A stretch of DNA of 64,000 nt from Giardia intestinalis (lineage: Eukaryota), in NCBI GenBank assembly GCA_000002435.2, contig CM018792.1; one strand, 5' to 3'. Shown here piece by piece: positions 10,580 through 57,640 of this stretch; position 1 is the stretch's first letter, and the number at the start of each line of letters is the position of its first letter. The position numbers and the translations under genes are program-made. The notes below the pieces were generated by a model that was not told the origin of the DNA, made no database searches, and saw only the letters and a list, made by a program, of their open reading frames with translations.

Positions 10580-13500
10580 CTACGCCTTCCCGCGGCAGAG
10601 GAACCACCAGCAAAGGAATCCGACAAGACCACCTACAATAACAATCACAGCAACAGAGATACCGGCTATGGCCCCCGTGCTGAGGCCGCTCTTGTTGACG
10701 CTTCCACCAGTGCCTACTTCTGATTCTAAGCATATGACTGAACTGCCAGATGACGACACACATTGCTTGCATCCAGAGATCTTCTCTGAGCACTTCTTGC
10801 ATAACCCAGCAGTGGTATCGTCACCGTTTTCCTTGTAATACCCAGTGGCACAGGTCTTGCACTTGTCAGCCGCATCTGCAGTCGAGCACGTAGCACAAGT
10901 AGAATGACATTCTGCACAGTTGCCATCACTTGCTGCTAAGCCATTGGCACATGTCTGACACTTACCATTGCCTCCCTGTGCATTACTACACACCTGCTTA
11001 CCAGGCTGTCTATCTGTCTGATAGCAGCCGCCGTCCTTGAGGAAGTAACCCTCATTGCATTTTGTACAGGCCCCACTTGTGATTGTTGCACAGAAGGCTA
11101 CTCGTGAACTGGCCGCACAGTTGCCGTTCAAGGGGGCTTGTTGAGTGTTCTTGCACTTTGAGCAATATGCAGTTCCTCCTATCTGAGCCCCACACTCTGC
11201 GCATCCATCGTTTGTAGAACTCACGCTGCACTGGTCCATGCACGTGCCCCCATTGACAGGAGTATTAGTATCTGTATACTGAAGCATTTTCCCAACAGGA
11301 CAGGCCGTGCACTGATTGTTGGCCGGTCCAACGCACTCAGCGCACTCAGGGTTGCATGCCTTACACTTCTTGTCAGTATCTCCGTAGTATCCGCTGATGG
11401 CTGTGCAGTCAGGTACGCATTGGTTTGTAGGGGTGAGGTAGTCGCCATCATTACATTTAGTGCAGATTTCGTTGTCTGTTTTGGGGTTGTCACAGGTCTT
11501 ACAGTTGGGAGTATTGCACGGCGCTTCTGGGTCCTTGGTGCACTGCTTCGTGTCAGTGTTGATGGTGTAGCCCGGACGGCACGTCTTGCACTGCTGGGCG
11601 TTGCCCTCCACGCAGGTCTCACAGCCCTCGACGTTGCACGGCGCTTCTGGGTCCTTGGTGCACTGCTTCGTGTCAGTGTTGATGGTGTAGCCCGGACGGC
11701 ACGTCTTGCACTGCTGGGCGTTGCCCTCCACGCAGGTCTCACAGCCCTCGACGTTGCACGGCGCTTCTGGGTCCTTGGTGCACTGCTTCGTGTCAGTGTT
11801 GATGGTGTAGCCCGGACGGCACGTCTTGCACTGCTGGGCGTTGCCCTCCACGCAGGTCTCACAGCCCTCGACGTTGCACGGCGCTTCTGGGTCCTTGGTG
11901 CACTGCTTCGTGTCAGTGTTGATGGTGTAGCCCGGACGGCACGTCTTGCACTGCTGGGCGTTGCCCTCCACGCAGGTCTCACAGCCCTCGACGTTGCACG
12001 GCGCTTCTGGGTCCTTGGTGCACTGCTTCGTGTCAGTGTTGATGGTGTAGCCCGGACGGCACGTCTTGCACTGCTGGGCGTTGCCCTCCACGCAGGTCTC
12101 ACAGCCCTCGACGTTGCACGGCGCTTCTGGGTCCTTGGTGCACTGCTTCGTGTCAGTGTTGATGGTGTAGCCCGGACGGCACGTCTTGCACTGCTGGGCG
12201 TTGCCCTCCACGCAGGTCTCACAGCCCTCGACGTTGCACGGCGCTTCTGGGTCCTTGGTGCACTGCTTCGTGTCAGTGTTGATGGTGTAGCCCGGACGGC
12301 ACGTCTTGCACTGCTGGGCGTTGCCCTCCACGCAGGTCTCACAGCCCTCGACGTTGCACGGCGCTTCTGGGTCCTTGGTGCACTGCTTCGTGTCAGTGTT
12401 GATGGTGTAGCCCGGACGGCACGTCTTGCACTGCTGGGCGTTGCCCTCCACGCAGGTCTCACAGCCCTCGACGTTGCACGGCGCTTCTGGGTCCTTGGTG
12501 CACTGCTTCGTGTCAGTGTTGATGGTGTAGCCCGGACGGCACGTCTTGCACTGCTGGGCGTTGCCCTCCACGCAGGTCTCACAGCCCTCGACGTTGCACG
12601 GCGCTTCTGGGTCCTTGGTGCACTGCTTCGTGTCAGTGTTGATGGTGTAGCCCGGACGGCACGTCTTGCACTGCTGGGCGTTGCCCTCCACGCAGGTCTC
12701 ACAGCCCTCGACGTTGCACGGCGCTTCTGGGTCCTTGGTGCACTGCTTCGTGTCAGTGTTGATGGTGTAGCCCGGACGGCACGTCTTGCACTGCTGGGCG
12801 TTGCCCTCCACGCAGGTCTCACAGCCCTCGACGTTGCACGGCGCTTCTGGGTCCTTGGTGCACTGCTTCGTGTCAGTGTTGATGGTGTAGCCCGGACGGC
12901 ACGTCTTGCACTGCTGGGCGTTGCCCTCCACGCAGGTCTCACAGCCCTCGACGTTGCACGGCGCTTCTGGGTCCTTGGTGCACTGCTTCGTGTCAGTGTT
13001 GATGGTGTAGCCCGGACGGCACGTCTTGCACTGCTGGGCGTTGCCCTCCACGCAGGTCTCACAGCCCTCGACGTTGCACGGCGCTTCTGGGTCCTTGGTG
13101 CACTGCTTCGTGTCAGTGTTGATGGTGTAGCCCGGACGGCACGTCTTGCACTGCTGGGCGTTGCCCTCCACGCAGGTCTCACAGCCCTCGACGTTGCACG
13201 GCGCTTCTGGGTCCTTGGTGCACTGCTTCGTGTCAGTGTTGATGGTGTAGCCCGGACGGCACGTCTTGCACTGCTGGGCGTTGCCCTCCACGCAGGTCTC
13301 ACAGCCCTCGACGTTGCACGGCGCTTCTGGGTCCTTGGTGCACTGCTTCGTGTCAGTGTTGATGGTGTAGCCCGGACGGCACGTCTTGCACTGCTGGGCG
13401 TTGCCCTCCACGCAGGTCTCACAGCCCTCGACGTTGCACGGCGCTTCTGGGTCCTTGGTGCACTGCTTCGTGTCAGTGTTGATGGTGTAGCCCGGACGGC

Positions 13501-14044
13501 ACGTCTTGCACTGCTGGGCGTTGCCCTCCACGCAGGTCTCACAGCCCTCGACGTTGCACGGCGCTTCTGGGTCCTTGGTGCACTGCTTCGTGTCAGTGTT
13601 GATGGTGTAGCCCGGACGGCACGTCTTGCACTGCTGGGCGTTGCCCTCCACGCAGGTCTCACAGCCCTCGACGTTGCACGGCGCTTCTGGGTCCTTGGTG
13701 CACTGCTTCGTGTCAGTGTTGATGGTGTAGCCCGGACGGCACGTCTTGCACTGCTGGGCGTTGCCCTCCACGCAGGTCTCACAGCCCTCGACGTTGCACG
13801 GCGCTTCTGGGTCCTTGGTGCACTGCTTCGTGTCAGTGTTGATGGTGTAGCCCGGACGGCACGTCTTGCACTGCTGGGCGTTGCCCTCCACGCAGGTCTC
13901 ACAGCCCTCGACGTTGCACGGCGCTTCTGGGTCCTTGGTGCACTGCTTCGTGTCAGTGTTGAGGGTGTAGCCCGGGAAGCATGTGTCCTTCCCGCTGTCC
14001 TTTGCCAGCACGGTTGCACAAACTAGGAGAAATCCTACCAACAT
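10580..14044 (-). CDS. Variant-specific surface protein (VSP) with a CRGKA tail and a 20-copy array of a 40-aa cysteine-rich repeat
   Basis: The C-terminus reads …[35 protein letters not shown]. The body is CXXC-rich. The signal-peptide start MLVGFLLVCATVLA is at 14044. The ORF track extends in-frame to 14350, but that extension is not VSP-like. The repeat unit is GYTINTDTKQCTKDPEAPCNVEGCETCVEGNAQQCKTCRP. Confidence 0.8.
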   Translation of the reverse strand: MLVGFLLVCATVLAKDSGKDTCFPGYTLNTDTKQCTKDPEAPCNVEGCETCVEGNAQQCKTCRPGYTINTDTKQCTKDPEAPCNVEGCETCVEGNAQQCKTCRPGYTINTDTKQCTKDPEAPCNVEGCETCVEGNAQQCKTCRPGYTINTDTKQCTKDPEAPCNVEGCETCVEGNAQQCKTCRPGYTINTDTKQCTKDPEAPCNVEGCETCVEGNAQQCKTCRPGYTINTDTKQCTKDPEAPCNVEGCETCVEGNAQQCKTCRPGYTINTDTKQCTKDPEAPCNVEGCETCVEGNAQQCKTCRPGYTINTDTKQCTKDPEAPCNVEGCETCVEGNAQQCKTCRPGYTINTDTKQCTKDPEAPCNVEGCETCVEGNAQQCKTCRPGYTINTDTKQCTKDPEAPCNVEGCETCVEGNAQQCKTCRPGYTINTDTKQCTKDPEAPCNVEGCETCVEGNAQQCKTCRPGYTINTDTKQCTKDPEAPCNVEGCETCVEGNAQQCKTCRPGYTINTDTKQCTKDPEAPCNVEGCETCVEGNAQQCKTCRPGYTINTDTKQCTKDPEAPCNVEGCETCVEGNAQQCKTCRPGYTINTDTKQCTKDPEAPCNVEGCETCVEGNAQQCKTCRPGYTINTDTKQCTKDPEAPCNVEGCETCVEGNAQQCKTCRPGYTINTDTKQCTKDPEAPCNVEGCETCVEGNAQQCKTCRPGYTINTDTKQCTKDPEAPCNVEGCETCVEGNAQQCKTCRPGYTINTDTKQCTKDPEAPCNVEGCETCVEGNAQQCKTCRPGYTINTDTKQCTKDPEAPCNVEGCETCVEGNAQQCKTCRPGYTINTDTKQCTKDPEAPCNTPNCKTCDNPKTDNEICTKCNDGDYLTPTNQCVPDCTAISGYYGDTDKKCKACNPECAECVGPANNQCTACPVGKMLQYTDTNTPVNGGTCMDQCSVSSTNDGCAECGAQIGGTAYCSKCKNTQQAPLNGNCAASSRVAFCATITSGACTKCNEGYFLKDGGCYQTDRQPGKQVCSNAQGGNGKCQTCANGLAASDGNCAECHSTCATCSTADAADKCKTCATGYYKENGDDTTAGLCKKCSEKISGCKQCVSSSGSSVICLESEVGTGGSVNKSGLSTGAIAGISVAVIVIVGGLVGFLCWWFLCRGKA
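11515..13980. repeat. Tandem array of 20 units of 120 bp, 100% identical at the nucleotide level (11521-13920), plus a diverged partial 21st unit. It lies in the coding sequence of the VSP.
   Basis: Every pair of 60-nt sequence lines from 11521 to 13920 is letter-for-letter identical (gcgcttctgggtccttggtgcactgcttcg…gacgttgcacg). The unit at 13921-13980 differs (gagggtgtagcccgggaagc). Confidence 0.95.
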
Positions 14045-15079
14045 TAGCCGGAGTTCGTGTGCTACTGCTTTTTCATCAGGCTGATGTGTTGCCGCGAGCA
14101 GTGAGAGGCAACCGCTCTTGCTCTCTTGATCAGTTGGACTGGAGGAGGACGAGATAGGAGCACACCCATCGGAGGCTAGTTGATAGTGCAGTTCCCCTTG
14201 ACTTCGATAGGAACAGGATCGGTGAGGGCCAGACTCAGATCGCACCTCTCTTGTGGAATGATTGTTCGGGGTGCACTCCTGTACATTGCTGTCGCTGTGC
14301 TCGTTGGCTTCCTCTGCAGGGGCAGGGCGTCCCGGTAGTAAATGCGTCACATTACATCTGCTCGCTCCATGGCCTCTGCGGCGCTATTCTATAAAGCTGC
14401 TGATTAGAGATCTCTAAGCGAATGCTCTCACTGGTCACAAGGGAGCAGAAGATAGACCCCAATAACTTTCGCTTCTCATCTGACCACCACGAGCCTGTTG
14501 CTTTCCATCCACGCCTCTCTTCCCCCGGACCGGCCTCGTGCTCCTTCGTCCAGCGCACCATATTGGAGTACACAGCCTCCTGTGCTGCCTGGCCGCAGGG
14601 TCCGCTGACGTGTGGGCCTACTCGCCCCAGACCCCATTGCAGAGCCAAAGGCTTCAGCGGAGAGACGTGCTCAGGTGCACCGCCAGACAGTGTCTCGGCG
14701 CCCCGTGACCACCTGGATCCATCCCCGGAGGTAACAGATGCAGCTCCGCCCTATGAGGGGGAGAGCGCCGGCGGCTGACTCCGCGACTGCAGTGCTCCAC
14801 ATAGGGACAGCCGGGCCATCCTCTGGCTCTCTGGACGGCAAGCGTGTGCCGAGCAGGAGGCGTCGGTGGACCGTGGCCCTCCACAGACTGGGTAGGTGGC
14901 CAGTGCCGGGGCTCGTCAACCATGGTGAGCTAGCTGATCGGGTGTCTCCCTACCGCATGGCTGGGACGTACAGAATAGCTCTGGACAGAACGCCAGACGC
15001 GAAGGAGCCGTCTCGCACAGGGCAGCCCCACGCTGCGGCCTATTTTCATTTAACCCCGCCTCGCTTGCCCGCGCCCCGG

Positions 15080-16265: not shown

Positions 16266-17525
16266 ATGGACGGCGCCCCGCACCTGGTCTTCCACGCGCC
16301 CGTTGGAGAGGCAGACGCGACGACGGCCCTCACCAAGCAGCTGGCAAACGCGTTCCCGGGCCGGCTCTCTGTCGACGTGACCTCCTCCCTCTCGAGGCCG
16401 CTTCCCGAGCGCGCCCTGCTTGTCGTCTCTGCGGGGCTGGAGACCCTCAGCCAGGCAGACGTCCAGGCGATCAAGGGCCACAGGCGCTCCGGCGGCCCCG
16501 TGCTCGTCATGGTCGCCGACGCGGCCCGGACCCGCTTTTCCGAGCACGCCGAGAAGATGCTCAACGAGCTGGGGATCTCGGGCATCAGGGCAGACCCCGT
16601 GATATCCTCCGTCCACACCCCCGGCCTGTACCACCCGACGCACCTGCTCCTCACCGCCTCGTCCTTCGTCTGCTCCTCGCTGCTCACCAAGCTGGAGAAG
16701 GCGCGCCCCGCGGCGGAGGCCCGCGACGTCTCCGTCGTCTACCCCTGCGGGACGTCGTTCGCAGTCAACCCGAGCCTGGCGGCCGTCGTGCTCTCGTCGG
16801 GCGACAGCGCGTTCCCGCCGAACCAGCCCGTCGCGGCCGCCCTGCGCGAGGACGGCGCCGCGAGGCTCGGCCGGTGCGTGGTGCTCGGCACGTCGCGGAT
16901 GTTCGCCGACGGCTTCCTCGCGAGGTTCGACAACCGCGCCCTCTTCGAGCTGGTCCTCCAGTACCTCCTGCGCCACCCGGACGCGCCCGCCCTCGCCTCT
17001 GCCGCAAACGTGAACGAGTCCCTCCTGGGAGGGGCCGAGGAGTCCGTTTACATCCCAGACACGCAGACGGTCGCGCTGAACATGCGCGCCTGCCTGCACG
17101 CCCCCGACGCGCTTCCAGACGACTTCACAGACCTCCTGGACACCGTCCCGTCGGCGAACCCGAGCATCCTGCCGCAGGTCTCGGCCCTGTACGAGAAGAT
17201 GGGATTCAGCAGGTCGGAGCCCACGCTGAAGCTGGTGAACCCCAGCTTTGAGAAGCCCACGCCGCCCCTCATCCCGGCGGTCCACTTCCCCGTCCTCCCC
17301 GACCCGCCCGGGGCGCCCCTGCTGGAGCTGTTCGACCTGGACACAGAGCTGGCCAGCGAGCAGACGCGCCTGAACAAGCTCGCGTCCAAGTGCACAAACA
17401 GCGACGTCGAGTTCTTCCTCCGGCAGGCCGGGGACCTCCTGAACATAGGCGGCTCGCCGAAGGAGATCCTGTACCACGTGCTTGTCTCCACGGTCAACTT
17501 CAAGAAGGGCATGGCCGGCAAGTGA
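16266..17525 (+). CDS. IFT52: Intraflagellar transport protein 52 (IFT-B core)
   Basis: Several blocks match animal IFT52 as recalled. VLVMVADAARTRFSEHAEKMLNELGI matches VFVMLGEGGESRFDTNINFLLEEYGI. VYPCGTSFAVNPSLAAVVLSSGDS…GRCVVLGTSRMFADGFL matches VYPFGATLSVMKPAVAVLSTGS…GKLAVLGSCHMFSDQYL. PLLELFDLDTELASEQTRLNKLASKCTNSDVEFFLRQAGDLLNI matches PPLELFDLDETFSSEKARLAQITNKCTEEDLEFYVRKCGDILGV. Confidence 0.85.
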   Translation: MDGAPHLVFHAPVGEADATTALTKQLANAFPGRLSVDVTSSLSRPLPERALLVVSAGLETLSQADVQAIKGHRRSGGPVLVMVADAARTRFSEHAEKMLNELGISGIRADPVISSVHTPGLYHPTHLLLTASSFVCSSLLTKLEKARPAAEARDVSVVYPCGTSFAVNPSLAAVVLSSGDSAFPPNQPVAAALREDGAARLGRCVVLGTSRMFADGFLARFDNRALFELVLQYLLRHPDAPALASAANVNESLLGGAEESVYIPDTQTVALNMRACLHAPDALPDDFTDLLDTVPSANPSILPQVSALYEKMGFSRSEPTLKLVNPSFEKPTPPLIPAVHFPVLPDPPGAPLLELFDLDTELASEQTRLNKLASKCTNSDVEFFLRQAGDLLNIGGSPKEILYHVLVSTVNFKKGMAGK

Positions 17526-17540: not shown

Positions 17541-17915
17541 TCAGTAGTAGTAGACGGCATACAGGTTGGCGATGCAGATGATGTCGTCGTTCTGGTACAC
17601 GTGGCGGAGCTCCGCGTCGGCGTCGGCGTCGAAGTAGCACTTGTTCTCGCTCCGGATGCCCTGGCCCTTCTGGCCGATGATGGTCACGGAGACGCAGATC
17701 TTGAACCTGCTGTCCGAGATGAGCCGCACCTTGGCCCGGATCTCGTCTGCGAGCTCCTTGGACACCTTGGCGCAGTCCTCGGAGTCGTACTGCCGCCCGC
17801 GCAGCCGCCTCTCCACGATCTGCTTCATCTCCTCGTGGGCCTTCTGCCGGTCGAACCTTTTGGCCGGCGCCGAGGGACGCGCAAGCTCCGTGATCTCTGT
17901 TCGGATGGTATCCAT
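17541..17915 (-). CDS. Tctex-1 family dynein light chain (DYNLT)
   Basis: The C-terminal half reads FKICVSVTIIGQKGQGIRSENKCYFDADADAELRHVYQNDDIICIANLYAVYYY. This matches the Tctex1 signature [51 protein letters not shown]. It is 124 aa long. It is convergent with IFT52, with the two stops 15 nt apart. Confidence 0.75.
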   Translation of the reverse strand: MDTIRTEITELARPSAPAKRFDRQKAHEEMKQIVERRLRGRQYDSEDCAKVSKELADEIRAKVRLISDSRFKICVSVTIIGQKGQGIRSENKCYFDADADAELRHVYQNDDIICIANLYAVYYY

Positions 17916-22012: not shown

Positions 22013-23062
22013 TTACTCCGCTTGTTTCCTATCTCTAAAATAGAAGTAAATGGTCTCTTCTGTCAGAAATACGAGGAAGGTGGCCGTTTCTGCCATGCCT
22101 ATGATCATCCCGTCAGTTCGAAACTCACTGACACGCTCCTTACTACCTTGCTGCTGTGTGGTTACCTCGTTAGAGACTGCCGCGATGGTAATTCGTTCAG
22201 TGCCTGTCGTCCCTCTGGAGTCCAATACATAGAGCGGTTCGTATTTGCTCACCTTACACCATGTGGAAACAGACGCTCCTGTCTTATCTACTGCGCAAAC
22301 TTGGCGCGTATTCAGACCTAAAAGGAATATTCCCGAGTGAGAAAATCGCGAGCAAAGGACCCGCGCGCCGTTCAACGGCAGCCGTGCGAAGGACTTAAAC
22401 ATCACGCTAACAGAGGTATCCTGTTGATAGACGACATCATAAGCAATGAGAGACTGCCTACAAACTAGGTATAGATTGCTACCAGAAAATACACCTGAAA
22501 CAGGAACATCGACATCAATACAGGTCTCAAATAGCAGCGTGGCCTTTTCTACGTCAAAGATAAATAGGTGCGATGCACTCGTGCATAGAACGCCAAGGAG
22601 TTTTCGACCCTTGACAATCCCCGACAGAAAGGCTTTTGCCCCATAACATTCTGTTTGATGGAGCATCGCCAAATAAAGCATTGAGTCTGCCAGTTCTGCA
22701 AGATACACAGCTCCACCAAGCGTGGCTAAGGCAACGTGCTTCTTTGGTGCGTCTGGAAGAGCATGTAGGACGATGATGAGGTCGGAATCTGTAATGGCTT
22801 CCCTTTGGTCTAGAAAAATGAGTTGGAGAGGTTCTATGGCGGTACCAGGGGTTTCTTCCTGCTTTTGAGAGTCTAACTCCTTAATCATGTACACGCTGCA
22901 GCCGTCTGAATACAAAAGAGTGTCCTGGAGGGCAGTACAAAGAGTACATCCACGAATGAAAGTGATGGGCCGAGAAAACCCAGTAGGGCATACAACACCA
23001 TTAAAGTCCATGACTAATTTACCCAAAATTTTAAAGGCTAAAAGCCTTGACATGGGACGCAC
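22013..23062 (-). CDS. Hypothetical protein, 349 aa, possibly a beta-propeller-like fold
   Basis: A clean ORF of plausible composition with no recognisable motifs. Confidence 0.45.
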   Translation of the reverse strand: MRPMSRLLAFKILGKLVMDFNGVVCPTGFSRPITFIRGCTLCTALQDTLLYSDGCSVYMIKELDSQKQEETPGTAIEPLQLIFLDQREAITDSDLIIVLHALPDAPKKHVALATLGGAVYLAELADSMLYLAMLHQTECYGAKAFLSGIVKGRKLLGVLCTSASHLFIFDVEKATLLFETCIDVDVPVSGVFSGSNLYLVCRQSLIAYDVVYQQDTSVSVMFKSFARLPLNGARVLCSRFSHSGIFLLGLNTRQVCAVDKTGASVSTWCKVSKYEPLYVLDSRGTTGTERITIAAVSNEVTTQQQGSKERVSEFRTDGMIIGMAETATFLVFLTEETIYFYFRDRKQAE

Positions 23063-24126
23063 TCCCTTCCGGTGACACAGTTGAGGGGTGCAGTGCCGGC
23101 TGGCGTTGCGCCGAGATTAATGTGTGTGAATGTTCCGATAGTGACACTCTTATTTAAAAGATCTGCCTCCCTTTCAATCAAATTAGGCTTGGTTGCAGTG
23201 ATAGGCGCAGTTTTATCATGAGGCCGTAGATTTGATTTATAATCCGAGTATGCAGTGGGATGGTTACTGGGATGTTGAGGATATACTGTCCTAGATTTAA
23301 TTTGGGTCGAGGTAGGATTGAGGTAGTCTATCTGATCTGCAGTTGCAGCCCGTGTGCGAGCAAGGTTGCTATGTGGGCGAGCATAATAGTCACTATACAT
23401 ATGGTTAATGTTGCGGGAAACAGGGCGCCGCTCATTGTTCATCGGTACGTCCTCCTTCATCCTGGGTCGGTGGTCAGAGTAAGCCAGAGATGGCCTCCAA
23501 CGACAGTTGGACTCTGGCAGGTGCTCCAGTCTTGTCTGCTCGCGGCGCATCTCACATAGCTCTTGCTTGTTCGGAACATACCTAACGTGTGTTGTGGCCC
23601 CCCACCCGGTCATGTCTGGGTGACACATGCGATAGTTAGAAGCACGGAACCTTTGCCCGGCCTGCGACGTTCGAGGAAACGTTGCTGTGAGATCTGGATA
23701 TGGATTCGGCCGAGAAGTCACAGTTTGTGCCCGCTCTATAGCACGCTGACTCCCAATAACCGTCGGCACCGGGTCTCCTCTCTCTGCTGCATCTAAAAGA
23801 GGGTTAATATGGGTGTAAGAATTCGACATGGGAAGCTGCTCTGGTGGCGGATGAAATGATGTAGGTCGGATCATGTAGGAGCGGGGAATAGTCCTTCTGC
23901 TAACATCTTCCATGCTTATGCCCACATTATCAGTTACCGGCTCACACTGCAGTGGCGGGCACGGACTCATTGTCTGTTGATTCCACTGCGGCACATTATC
24001 CGCTGCGTCAAACGAGCCGCATCCACACACCCCGTGAAAGGGATATGGGCACCCGGGTGCATGCCTAGGCTCAACACAATCCATACAGCCACGCGCATTA
24101 GCACAGCACAAAGACCCCGCTTGCAT
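23038..24126 (-). CDS. Hypothetical Cys/His-motif protein, member C of a local paralog array
   Basis: The N-terminal motif reads PRHAPGCPYPFHGVCGCG and aligns with the motifs in members A and B. It overlaps the upstream gene by 25 nt. Confidence 0.5.
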   Translation of the reverse strand: MQAGSLCCANARGCMDCVEPRHAPGCPYPFHGVCGCGSFDAADNVPQWNQQTMSPCPPLQCEPVTDNVGISMEDVSRRTIPRSYMIRPTSFHPPPEQLPMSNSYTHINPLLDAAERGDPVPTVIGSQRAIERAQTVTSRPNPYPDLTATFPRTSQAGQRFRASNYRMCHPDMTGWGATTHVRYVPNKQELCEMRREQTRLEHLPESNCRWRPSLAYSDHRPRMKEDVPMNNERRPVSRNINHMYSDYYARPHSNLARTRAATADQIDYLNPTSTQIKSRTVYPQHPSNHPTAYSDYKSNLRPHDKTAPITATKPNLIEREADLLNKSVTIGTFTHINLGATPAGTAPLNCVTGRECVPCQGF

Positions 24127-24239
24127 TTTTTTCTACAGCATTCCGCGCATGCACTCCCAAGAAAGGTTATAAGCGCACACATAGACAGCCCCAGTTTACA
24201 GTCAAGTGGCAATGCCTCCACAATCGATACCCGAAGAGC

Positions 24240-24959
24240 TTATTCTTTTGCAATACGCTTTATCAACTCTTCCTTTAGATATCGAGCATCTGCGGGATCA
24301 CCGCACTCATAACAAGTAACACCATCTTCCCACTTTGTCGATACAGCGTACTTCTGGATGACGGGTTGAGGCTTGTTGTATGGGCAAAGAGAGAACCCGT
24401 CATCGAATGGCTCAAAGAGCTGATCCTTCTTAGGGGTCACGTCCAGAGTTGTTCGGCCACGTGTCCCAGGAACTTCCTCATTCAGTCTGAAGTTTGATAT
24501 TCGTCCAGGCCAGTGACAAAGGCGAGCTGCTGGAGCAACCGTGGTATGGAGATCCTCGCGTCTATACACGGTTGAGGCAGGTCTTTGATACGCTTCGTGG
24601 CTCTGAATACAACAGATCTTTGTTGGGATAGTGTAGGGGTCTCCACGCAACAACCCCACGCACCCCATGGAGTCTGGTCCAAACGCATGTGTCTCGCAGT
24701 TCTCGCCAGGAATGGGATATTTAAAGTACCTATCTGGACCGATACTATCGCAATGTGGAGGTACTGATGTATGTGCTAGCAGGGGCCTGACCGGTCTGGA
24801 GAAGCTCTTGCAGTCGACAGGTCCAGGCTTCCTCCACCCAGGTGGGCACTCAACATCAGCAGCGCATGTACATACACCTGCGGTATATACTGGGCAGTCT
24901 GATGCATGCTGTGGTCGTTCAGAATAGGTGCTTCTGATGTATTCTGTCGCTTGTCTCAT
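24240..24959 (-). CDS. Hypothetical Cys/His-motif protein, member B of the paralog array
   Basis: The N-terminus reads PQHASDCPVYTAGVCTCA. Internal blocks GDPYTIPTKICC and WPGRISNFRLNEEVP align with member A's RDPYADLPCV and GWGFRNSFELREP. Confidence 0.55.
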   Translation of the reverse strand: MRQATEYIRSTYSERPQHASDCPVYTAGVCTCAADVECPPGWRKPGPVDCKSFSRPVRPLLAHTSVPPHCDSIGPDRYFKYPIPGENCETHAFGPDSMGCVGLLRGDPYTIPTKICCIQSHEAYQRPASTVYRREDLHTTVAPAARLCHWPGRISNFRLNEEVPGTRGRTTLDVTPKKDQLFEPFDDGFSLCPYNKPQPVIQKYAVSTKWEDGVTCYECGDPADARYLKEELIKRIAKE

Positions 24960-25004
24960 TTTTAATTGGCGCGCTTACAGACTCAACAACGTTTACTGAC
25001 TCAC

Positions 25005-25580
25005 TCACAAATGATAGCGAACGCGAACTGGCGCATAACTGCTTGTAGGACGCAGCTTGTCAGATAGGATCGCTGCCGGAACTAATCCTCTGGTTAATGT
25101 TGCAATCTTTCTATTAGCCATATCGTTTAAGGCGTACTTATACGTTTCATACAAATAAGGGCACATAACATTATCTCTATCAAGCGCAAGCTTAAACACC
25201 TGAGTGGGGACCCTGCTGCGTGAAGACGAAGAATGCAACACACGGGTGTAGCCAGCCTGGTAAGAGGGATCAGACTCAGTCAGCAAAGATTCCGGGAGAT
25301 ACTGGTTGTAGTTGTCAATACAAGAATTGCTCCCTTCTTGTAGGTCAATGCCATGTCTGTGCGATGCAAGGTTGGGTTTGCCTGTAATAGGCCCTGTCCA
25401 GTCGACACCAATCACATTAGAAGGTCGCTGAGTTCCATATGCTGTCAATTCTTGAGTGCTTGAAGTACGCACAGGGTCGTTAGTGCCAAGCGGATGAACA
25501 CACGAACAACTTTTCATTTTACTCCTATCACTCACCCCTGTTTCAAGCTTCCTTTGGGCCTCCAAATGGCCAAAACCCAT
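25005..25580 (-). CDS. Hypothetical protein inside the paralog array, 191 aa. Its true start is possibly at Met 22 (25517).
   Basis: An ORF of protein-like composition with CSC and H residues near the N-terminus (KMKSCSCVHPLG). The start in the ORF track overlaps the neighbouring gene by 38 nt. Confidence 0.4.
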   Translation of the reverse strand: MGFGHLEAQRKLETGVSDRSKMKSCSCVHPLGTNDPVRTSSTQELTAYGTQRPSNVIGVDWTGPITGKPNLASHRHGIDLQEGSNSCIDNYNQYLPESLLTESDPSYQAGYTRVLHSSSSRSRVPTQVFKLALDRDNVMCPYLYETYKYALNDMANRKIATLTRGLVPAAILSDKLRPTSSYAPVRVRYHL

Positions 25581-26196
25581 TTTGGACTCCGTTGCGGCCG
25601 CTAACTCCTGCTGGCTTAAAGAATGTGCCGCAGAAGGAGTTCTCCTTTTGCAAAATCTCGAGGTATTCCTTTGTATAATCTCTTGGCTCCCTCAGCTCGA
25701 AGGAATTTCGAAAGCCCCAGCCATATGGCGGTTCCCTCTGCGGGATCTTGTGTGGGACGATTACCCTTTCTCCTTGATAGGTCCTCATAACGCAAGGTAG
25801 GTCAGCATATGGATCTCTTCCGTAGAGCTCTTTTGGGCGATGACGAGTCATCCGAGCTTTGCATTGAGCTCTCTCTTGCTCTGATATGCGGAGCATGTTA
25901 CACCAACATTGCGGATCATCAGTCCACGCTCGATCACACAAGTGAGGGGAATGGCCCGTATCTCTTTGATGTGTAGATAAGCTAGAAGAGTAACGAGGCT
26001 CTAATCCCATGGGATCACGCCACATCTGCTCTCTGTCGAACATGTATGCCAAGTTCCGCGTCTGTGGAGGCAGATTGGTAGTAGGCATCTTATTTCCAAT
26101 ACCACAGGTGCAATCTTCGTTTTTATAGTACAGGCAGTCCCGTGCGTGCATAGATAGGTGACGGATCTTCGATCTGTTATACGCGGCAGTGCTCAT
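25543..26196 (-). CDS. Hypothetical Cys/His-motif protein, member A of the paralog array
   Basis: The N-terminus reads SMHARDCLYYKNEDCTCG. See the finding at 23038-26929 for the alignment. Confidence 0.55.
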   Translation of the reverse strand: MSTAAYNRSKIRHLSMHARDCLYYKNEDCTCGIGNKMPTTNLPPQTRNLAYMFDREQMWRDPMGLEPRYSSSLSTHQRDTGHSPHLCDRAWTDDPQCWCNMLRISEQERAQCKARMTRHRPKELYGRDPYADLPCVMRTYQGERVIVPHKIPQREPPYGWGFRNSFELREPRDYTKEYLEILQKENSFCGTFFKPAGVSGRNGVQNGFWPFGGPKEA

Positions 26197-26260
26197 TCAG
26201 GTCTCCGGTAATCTGTATCTTTTTGCTGCATTTACTAATAAAATTAGGCTTCTATATAAA

Positions 26261-26929
26261 TTACATCTCACGGACTACATCCCCAATGGGGCAATGTGCC
26301 CTACGGAATCCGCCATCACGCTCTGGATGCGGCGACATGCTATATCCATAGACTATCTGATTTTTAGTATCAGCATAGAATGCCTGATAGCCTTTTCGCT
26401 CAACACTTGATGGAGTCTGACTTACTGGTGAAGAGCTCAAGCCCACTGTGGCCCTACTAGGCTCTGGGTTAGATTGAGATCTCCTTGCCACCAGCGCTCG
26501 TATGGGCGGCAATTGAACATCAGGTTTGACTCTAGAGTAGCCCGCATCCAACTGTTCAAAGATGCTATGTTTCTGCAACGACCTTACTGGTTTTCCAGGA
26601 TTGGTGCATACGTTGATTAGCTTGGCGTTGGGAGTTTTATTATGTTCTAGGGATTTTAAGGACATTGAGGCAGAGTTAGAACGACATAGTCGTGGAAGCT
26701 CAAAAGTGTCGTTGAGGGGCGAGCAACTTGGCGCATTTCGCTGATTGGAATAACTTCGAGATGGGATTGTTGTGGTATCTTGACCGGCGCTGTTCTTGAC
26801 AGGCTGTGGAGCAATCTTAGCTTGTACACTCTGGTTTGTAGTATGGCGCAGAGCCCGAAGAACAGGATCAGCTGGCGTCTGTGTGATAAGCTTCATAGCA
26901 CCATTATTGCACCCGCTTACAACACGCAT
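26261..26929 (-). CDS. Hypothetical protein, 222 aa. Its C-terminus (…RRAHCPIGDV) resembles the HA-x-C-P motif of the array.
   Basis: A clean S/P-rich ORF on the same strand, immediately upstream of member A. Confidence 0.4.
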   Translation of the reverse strand: MRVVSGCNNGAMKLITQTPADPVLRALRHTTNQSVQAKIAPQPVKNSAGQDTTTIPSRSYSNQRNAPSCSPLNDTFELPRLCRSNSASMSLKSLEHNKTPNAKLINVCTNPGKPVRSLQKHSIFEQLDAGYSRVKPDVQLPPIRALVARRSQSNPEPSRATVGLSSSPVSQTPSSVERKGYQAFYADTKNQIVYGYSMSPHPERDGGFRRAHCPIGDVVREM

Positions 26930-39761: not shown

Positions 39762-39844
39762 GCCAGTTTGGCCGAGTGGTTAAGGCGGGGGACTTAAGAT
39801 CCTCTGATCGCAAGATCGCGTGGGTTCGAACCCCACAGCTGGCA
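39762..39844 (+). tRNA. tRNA-Leu (anticodon UAA)
   Basis: 83 nt. The acceptor stem is GCCAGTT/AGCTGGC. The D-arm is GCCGAGTGGTtAAGGC. The anticodon stem is GGGGA/TCCTC with loop CTTAAGA. A long variable arm has a GATC/GATC stem. The T-arm is GTGGG-TTCGAAC-CCCAC. The discriminator is A. A tttt run (a Pol III terminator) follows at 39845-39848. Confidence 0.85.
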
Positions 39845-57569: not shown

Positions 57570-57640
57570 TGCGCATGCCGGGGCTCGAACCCGGAACGAA
57601 AGCTTGGGAAACTCTCATGATACCCTTTCACCACATGCGC
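57570..57640 (-). tRNA. tRNA-Gly (anticodon CCC)
   Basis: 71 nt on the minus strand: GCGCATG-TG-GTGA-AAGGGTA-TCAT-G-AGAGT-TTCCCAA-GCTTT-CGTT-CCGGG-TTCGAGC-CCCGG-CATGCGC-A. The 7-bp acceptor stem is perfect. The T-loop is TTCGAGC. The anticodon loop has U33, CCC at 34-36 and A37. The 3' end lies 11 nt from the TSR1 stop. Confidence 0.75.

Follow-up and report, generated by a model that had tools for sequence, protein, structure and literature searches.

What is encoded by a short run of small, uncharacterized genes on one strand of the Giardia intestinalis genome, and do these genes belong together? We addressed this question in a 64,000-nucleotide stretch of contig CM018792.1 (assembly GCA_000002435.2, WB clone C6; hereafter, the window), where an initial reading of the letters alone, here called the original prediction, had pointed to an array of paralogous genes at positions 23038-26929 whose products begin with a similar pattern of His and Cys residues. 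Five co-oriented minus-strand open reading frames (ORFs) lie in this region, all matching annotated genes by exact sequence, and each of these genes is annotated as a "hypothetical protein". We denote them, in the order in which they are transcribed, as Y (GL50803_4687), A (GL50803_4689), X (GL50803_4690), B (GL50803_4692) and C (GL50803_17375). With moderate confidence, we read A, B and C as a family of disordered, proline-rich proteins of the basal bodies and axonemes that is restricted to Giardia and carries a probable metal-binding head.

The core of this reading is a motif near the N-terminus of the three proteins. Translation of the whole 64 kb in six frames yields three copies of the pattern H-A-x-x-C-x7-C-x-C, always in A, B or C, and thirty shuffles of the window yield none. 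A pattern search of the six frames places the motif, written H-x3-C-x7-C-x-C, at 26104-26148 (minus strand) in A (HARDCLYYKNEDCTC), at 24864-24908 (minus strand) in B (HASDCPVYTAGVCTC) and at 24019-24063 (minus strand) in C (HAPGCPYPFHGVCGC), and in each of the three it lies 16-22 residues from the N-terminus. The genes themselves span 25543-26196 for A (minus strand, 217 amino acids, exactly identical to GL50803_004689), which encodes a basal-body and cytoplasmic-axoneme protein; 24240-24959 for B (minus strand, 239 amino acids), which encodes a basal-body protein; and 23038-24126 for C (minus strand, 362 amino acids). The three minus-strand ORFs, the sequence strings quoted from them and their matching His/Cys spacing were therefore all present as originally described. 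The three genes are indeed arranged head to tail, but they are not strictly consecutive as had been claimed, since X separates A from B.

When 14-15 N-termini, drawn from three G. duodenalis lineages and from G. muris, are aligned, the His and the three Cys residues of the motif are the sole invariant columns. The sequences therefore hold four conserved ligand-type residues at fixed spacing, as looked for in a zinc module, save for the G. muris orthologue of C. All orthologues of A, including that of G. muris, keep the four residues, and the surrounding module (residues 13-35) is the best-conserved segment of the protein, being 78% identical between WB and G. muris as compared to 28% for the remainder. 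The motif is also conserved in B, where it reads HTHSCPIKTAGVCTC in G. muris; here the module is 64% identical and the remainder 34%, and residues 21-80 of B taken whole show a conservation similar to that of the module. In C the motif is kept in the three G. duodenalis lineages. The expectation that the motif would be conserved in orthologues thus holds for the A and B groups and fails for the C group, whose G. muris orthologue is described below. The Ala that follows the His, which had been listed as a fixed motif residue, varies, and is replaced by Thr in the G. muris orthologue of B and in one assemblage-B orthologue of A.

Two further observations concern these N-termini. The third of the G. 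duodenalis lineages, which is 76-84% identical to WB and is found only in the Logan read-archive assemblies P0002, P0006 and P0009, keeps all three motifs. In addition, B (window 24240-24959, minus strand) has a second set of residues that is invariant from G. duodenalis to G. muris, namely C38, C50, H63 and C70 (ECPPGW...DCK...AHTS.PP.C). Judging by this residue pattern, the second set could form another metal site.

The five ORFs of 23038-26929 are real, constrained genes. Assemblage B has a collinear region, about 75% identical in nucleotides, and the same five genes, in identical order, are called in six assemblage-B contigs. At the amino-acid level the ORFs are 49-85% identical to their assemblage-B counterparts, and all five are under purifying selection, with ratios of nonsynonymous to synonymous substitution rates (dN/dS) of 0.06-0.17 where computable. 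This ratio is 0.078 for both B and C, 0.17 for X and 0.13 for Y (62% identity), while A is 78% identical at the amino-acid level with a dN of 0.128 and a saturated dS. B is also present in a published mass-spectrometry proteome (PMC5070761).

How far does the relationship between A, B and C extend? BLASTP relates A to B with E = 9e-4 over the N-terminus only, B to C with E = 1e-3 across 183 residues, and A to C with E = 0.72. Using hhalign on profiles built from the alignments of each orthologue group, we obtained E = 2.6e-4 for A-B (33 columns), E = 9.3e-4 for B-C (20 columns) and E = 0.032 for A-C, and all three matches are confined to the N-terminal module of about 20-35 residues. A, B and C thus appear to form a paralogous family that arose by local duplication, a conclusion supported for the N-terminal module only; of the locally duplicated family in the original prediction, it is the module that is borne out by hhalign, and the tails are not. 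The internal blocks that A and B had been said to share did not hold up either: BLASTP links the two proteins at the N-terminus alone, their tails are not significantly related (see below), and the G. muris orthologue of A has not kept the blocks seen in A. C differs in being best conserved in its centre and not at its N-terminus, over residues ~137-309 (PYPDL...FRAxxYRMxHPxMTGW...HLPESNCRWRP.LAYSD), and three repeats of the form Y-[STG]-D are conserved in it, at residues 216, 244 and 293.

Two additional ORFs in or next to the array, X and Y, had been proposed to carry related Cys/His fragments, and neither could be retained as a relative. X was rejected with hhalign values of E = 0.098 against C and E = 0.35 against B. 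For Y, which adjoins the array at 26261-26929 (minus strand, 222 amino acids), the motif is absent and no BLASTP hit is better than E = 0.69. X is found at 25005-25580 (minus strand) as an ORF of 191 amino acids, which shares 38 nucleotides with the 3' end of A. The current gene model of X begins at an internal Met (MKSCSC...) and comprises 170 amino acids at 25005-25517, so that the two starts delimit window positions 25517-25580 (minus strand); the start of X is poorly conserved among assemblages and in G. muris.

Restriction of the family to the genus Giardia is supported by database searches. An exhaustive HMMER search with a family profile in 1.84 billion representative sequences retrieved nine proteins, all from Giardia (G. 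duodenalis assemblages and G. muris). These include the G. muris orthologues of A (GMRT_12259), B (GMRT_12258) and C (GMRT_12257), which were newly found by HMMER, as word-indexed searches with A, B and C gave G. duodenalis matches only. Two metagenome scans, made with the alignments of B and A, retrieved no relatives, and Pfam and the PDB (below) added nothing, in agreement with the lineage-specific character that had been suggested for these genes. GMRT_12257 is conserved with C chiefly over residues 137-309.

The G. muris genes are found in the same order and orientation, as A-like, X-like, B-like and C-like genes, and the duplication is therefore older than the split between G. duodenalis and G. 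muris. The genes flanking this block in G. muris are unrelated to the G. duodenalis flanks, and neither tblastn nor BLASTP relates Y to the G. muris neighbours, so that Y has no detectable counterpart in the G. muris cluster. G. duodenalis and G. muris may commonly share short blocks of synteny, and we therefore do not lean on the A-X-B-C block as evidence for functional clustering. The G. muris cluster also contains, just upstream of the A-like gene, two other genes that start with His and Cys residues. One (L008 6391-7194, plus strand) encodes 267 amino acids rich in charged residues with a His/Cys N-terminus, ...YATHAGKCPRCAGGVYTGCRCML; the other (L008 7243-8382, plus strand) encodes 379 amino acids with a related His/Cys N-terminus, ...AKAHGCGYQGGPCVCAQC. 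In the 64-kb window no counterpart of either upstream gene was detectable. These two extra N-termini suggest that the motif may mark a larger, fast-evolving set of genes.

Where do these proteins reside in the cell? The original prediction had named cytoskeletal and flagellar fractions as the place to look, and published tagging and proteomics have indeed already placed A and B at the basal bodies, all eight of them (PMC4931700; PMC13322205). Table 1 of McInally & Dawson 2016 (PMC4931700) lists GL50803_4689 and GL50803_4692, both under the name "Hypothetical protein, None", in the category "All basal bodies" with codes for a basal-body-enriched proteome (PRO) and for epitope tagging (EPI), and refers to Lauwaet et al. 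2011. A second source (PMC13322205, supplementary file 3) places GL50803_4689 at the basal bodies and at the cytoplasmic anterior and posteriolateral axonemes, and records "no localization in trophozoites" for X (GL50803_004690). For GL50803_17375 and GL50803_4687 there is no localization record in the literature that we searched, including these two papers, and none of these genes is mentioned in the supplements to an encystation transcriptome or to the ventral-disc proteome. A family assignment or a common motif is mentioned in neither PMC4931700 nor PMC13322205, and may be contained in Lauwaet et al. 2011.

A, B and C are hydrophilic proteins, with a grand average of hydropathy (GRAVY) of -0.5 to -1.0, a proline content of 8-14% and an isoelectric point (pI) mostly of 8.6-10. 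No transmembrane segment or signal peptide was found in any of the three, the maximum hydropathy over 19 residues being at most 0.75. AlphaFold2, when given the family alignment, returned a predicted local distance difference test (pLDDT) score of 30 across the whole of B. For the isolated 50-residue module (14 sequences) AlphaFold predicted a beta-hairpin, with strands at residues 24-26 and 29-31, which falls between the first Cys and the CxC pair, and a Foldseek search of the PDB with this model gave 0 matches. Of the zinc-knuckle fold that structure prediction might have revealed at the N-terminus, the hairpin was thus obtained and a confident fold was not. The conservation pattern of the module suggests a small metal knuckle, in keeping with the putative metal-binding module of the original prediction, but the low-confidence model does not confirm it.

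To place the proteins among known families we scanned Pfam at E values up to 10 with all five proteins, the orthologues from G. muris and the N-termini in isolation, and searched the PDB by sequence and by profile (with B alone, with the A, B and C groups, with the 14 N-termini and with a further profile). The PDB searches gave chance matches only, with no basal-body or axoneme chain of Giardia matching, and Pfam yielded no significant match, in line with the original prediction, in which the proteins could not be placed in a known family. With its His and three Cys within 15 residues, as the only invariant positions, and its predicted hairpin, the module resembles a zinc knuckle or C2HC finger, but the order and spacing of H-x3-C-x7-C-x-C fit no Pfam zinc-finger model. 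Membership in the variant-specific surface proteins (VSPs) or in other high-cysteine membrane or secreted proteins of Giardia was rejected, as A, B and C have no Pfam VSP match and no hydrophobic segment, while a genuine VSP/cEGF protein in the window was detected readily.

The nearest functional analogy that we found for a tandem, lineage-specific axonemal family is with proteins of another group of protists. The doublet microtubules of trypanosomatids contain lineage-specific, largely non-globular inner proteins (DMIPs), four of which have zinc sites, and one pair of neighbouring paralogues among them, DMIP4 and DMIP5, co-assembles (PMC7617938). The Giardia proteins would resemble DMIPs in their confinement to one lineage, in being mostly without globular domains, and in the combination of zinc sites in some members with adjacent paralogues. 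There is no sequence similarity, as PDB profile searches that included the DMIP chains were negative, and an inner position or a contact with tubulin is putative for the Giardia proteins.

On these grounds we propose the following model. The His-Cys3 tetrad would chelate a metal ion, most probably Zn2+, and the metal would pin the short beta-hairpin into a compact "head". This head may dock each paralogue onto a common type of site on the scaffold of the basal body and proximal axoneme, and the divergent, disordered tails, rich in Pro and Tyr, might then extend along tubulin or partner proteins, by analogy with the lineage-specific, non-globular inner or associated proteins known from other axonemes. 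The model predicts that GL50803_17375 will be found at the same structures as GL50803_4689 and GL50803_4692.

Several results weigh against this model. With the module removed, hhalign gives E = 0.26-0.29 for the tails in all three pairs, which is no significant relation, and in the absence of demonstrable homology between the tails the term "family" strictly refers to the common head. The best local matches between the tails are collinear (LYGRDPYAD/LLRGDPYTI, RDPYADLPC/PNPYPDLTA and GRISNFRLN/FRASNYRM), so that the tails may yet share an eroded homology. In the G. muris orthologue of C, MQCTNGMCACSCPEPRPASVC takes the place of the motif, with no His, no CxC and another Cys pattern, and its module is 25% identical to that of WB C as compared to 33% for the remainder; one paralogue can therefore do without the tetrad in at least one lineage. 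Pfam returned nothing but noise at E ≤ 10, with no zinc-finger family matching the module, and the pLDDT of the isolated module is low, at about 50. Proteins localized to the basal bodies may, as cautioned in PMC4931700, "merely dock" there. Metal binding, microtubule binding and a stoichiometric structural role, finally, are putative properties of all members.

Several other explanations can be set against this model. That the motif is a chance resemblance among unrelated Cys-containing N-termini, with no family behind it, might be argued from the weak BLASTP values (E = 9e-4, 1e-3 and 0.72) and from the tails that cannot be significantly aligned. This explanation is effectively refuted: the motif occurs three times in 64 kb, at the same distance from the N-terminus, in neighbouring co-oriented genes, and never in the shuffles; hhalign joins A-B and B-C at E = 2.6e-4 and 9.3e-4; motif and gene order recur together in G. 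muris; and no columns are invariant other than those of the ligand-like residues. A more specific proposal places the three proteins, as extremely diverged members, in the SAXO/MAP6 (STOP) family; the Cys cluster would then be the counterpart of SAXO motif 1, and the tails, rich in Tyr and Pro, would be degenerate Mn-like repeats. SAXO proteins are axonemal and have an N-terminal Cys cluster with C-T-C-G, high proline and a basic pI, their N-terminal consensus not being strict; motif 1 reads [GR][KT]CVC[ESR][LI]CTCGK[HC][KR]C, and tandemly repeated Mn-like modules of about 15 residues bind and stabilize microtubules, with a resistance to cold and nocodazole that was assayed for TbSAXO in heterologous cells (PMC3280300). 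The Giardia proteins recall TbSAXO, SAXO1 and DMIP1 in their N-terminal Cys cluster with C-T-C-G, in being proline-rich, mostly basic and non-globular, and in their location at the axoneme and basal body. In addition, hhalign, in its best match between the A family and human SAXO1, pairs N-terminus with N-terminus (RDCLYYKNEDCTCGIG with RKCLC---QICTCGRH, at a non-significant E = 0.084), the G. muris orthologue of C starts with C-x-C-x-C-P, and C has its three Y-[STG]-D repeats, although their Tyr spacing differs from that of the Mn-like motif. Against this stands a control sequence of human SAXO1, confirmed by its matches to PDB 8ou0_D (E = 1.8e-274) and to PF05217 (1155 bits), whereas A, B, C and the G. 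muris orthologues have no PF05217 match at E ≤ 10. Profile comparison with SAXO1 gave E = 0.084 for the A family, 0.31 for B and 0.32 for C, with a probability below 1%. The skeleton of motif 1, C-x-C-x2-C-x-C-G-x-[HC]-x-C, is present in SAXO1 and absent from the members, with only CTCG in common, and the Mn-like core and loose patterns are likewise absent from the members, the SAXO1 control being positive. SAXO1 (8ou0) and the 266-residue STOP-family protein DMIP1 (9e78) were both in the PDB that we searched, and neither was recovered by the member profiles. Finally, the ligand order of SAXO (C-x-C-x2-C-x-C-G-x-H-x-C) differs from the H-x3-C-x7-C-x-C of Giardia, and the Giardia proteins are much shorter, restricted to their genus, and devoid of Mn-like repeats of ~15 residues. 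Membership in SAXO/MAP6 was rejected on these tests and is very unlikely in our estimation, and a functional resemblance remains plausible.

Other alternatives accept the family and differ on what the head does. The Cys cluster might serve as a palmitoylation or targeting signal, or as a redox-sensitive cluster, that directs the proteins to the basal bodies with no folded knuckle. The N-terminal cysteines of MAP6 are palmitoylated (PMC3280300), AlphaFold gives no confident fold for the module, and the C lineage shows plasticity in its Cys pattern, all of which would fit; but an invariant His at a fixed spacing from three Cys typifies metal ligation and is unneeded for acylation, B has its second invariant set of C/C/H/C residues, and the proteins sit on basal bodies and cytoplasmic axonemes, which are not membranous, so that we consider this explanation rather improbable. 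The tetrad could instead bind an iron-sulfur cluster, and the basal body would then harbour Fe-S proteins. In 4-hydroxyphenylacetate decarboxylase (HPAD), the N-terminal domain of the gamma subunit holds a [4Fe-4S] cluster through three Cys and one His (PMC13450708), and residues 17-33 of A, with a D-C-x7-D-C-like stretch, match the corresponding Pfam family PF18671 (4HPAD_g_N) below threshold (E = 0.035, 14.3 bits as compared to a curated cut-off of 25). Only 3 of the 14 N-termini give such a match, and of six scanned singly only the two G. duodenalis A sequences do so, with none in G. muris A and B or in both C sequences; the profile of 14 N-termini finds nothing in the PDB, which includes that subunit. 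We therefore treat the PF18671 match as chance. The HPAD subunit belongs, moreover, to a bacterial enzyme and has a fold like that of high-potential iron-sulfur proteins (HiPIP), which is not predicted for the Giardia proteins, and an iron-sulfur head is accordingly hardly credible. Lastly, the proteins may have no structural role and may be regulators or cargo awaiting transport that dock transiently at the basal bodies, the head being a tag for protein-protein interaction. This explanation takes up the docking caveat quoted above and is in keeping with the fact that no periodic repeat or tubulin-binding motif is demonstrable in A or B, but A and B were recovered in basal-body-enriched preparations, A is also found along the length of the cytoplasmic axonemes, and the composition of the proteins is like that of non-globular structural proteins of axonemes. 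On balance we regard transient docking as unlikely, though worth keeping in mind.

A bolder extension of the metal-head model can also be outlined, which we offer as a tentative and, taken as a whole, doubtful proposal. The head might be an undescribed, Giardia-specific docking module built on Zn or Fe-S, and its carriers would then be lineage-specific proteins that lie inside, or are associated with, the basal-body triplets and the unusually long cytoplasmic axonemes. The tandem paralogues, together with the interleaved GL50803_4690, might co-assemble into one structure, and there could be further carriers, such as the G. muris neighbours with THAGKCPRC...CRC and AHGCG...CVC. If true, the module would mark a small lineage-specific "toolkit" with which Giardia builds its eight differentiated basal bodies.

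Some 40% of the Giardia proteome consists of "hypothetical" proteins (PMC13322205), and the composition of the eight distinct basal bodies and the long cytoplasmic axonemes is poorly known (PMC4931700). The genes described here and two of the localizations are already public, and our results overturn nothing and resolve no long-standing question. What they add is that two localized hypothetical proteins of the basal body are grouped with the unlocalized GL50803_17375 through the His-Cys3 head, from which the localization prediction given above follows. The head also presents a target of four residues for mutagenesis and a candidate module for basal-body targeting or assembly, and a structural component specific to the parasite might serve as a marker or as a lead for a drug target.

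Other features of the window were noted along the way. The VSP/cEGF high-cysteine membrane protein mentioned above has 1256 amino acids and is encoded at 10580-14350 (minus strand), in a stretch of 57-67% G+C (~10-18 kb); several ORFs of more than 800 amino acids on the opposite strand or in other frames, at 11221-14026, are presumably artefacts of this G+C content. Two flagellar genes lie within ~6 kb of the array: IFT52 at 16266-17525 (plus strand), in a stretch with an unusually high G+C content of 66-67%, and a Tctex-1 dynein light chain at 17541-17915 (minus strand), which was assigned by synteny with assemblage B. Their nearness to the array may be coincidence. Two tRNA genes were identified with Rfam at the gathering threshold, at 39762-39844 (plus strand) and 57570-57640 (minus strand).

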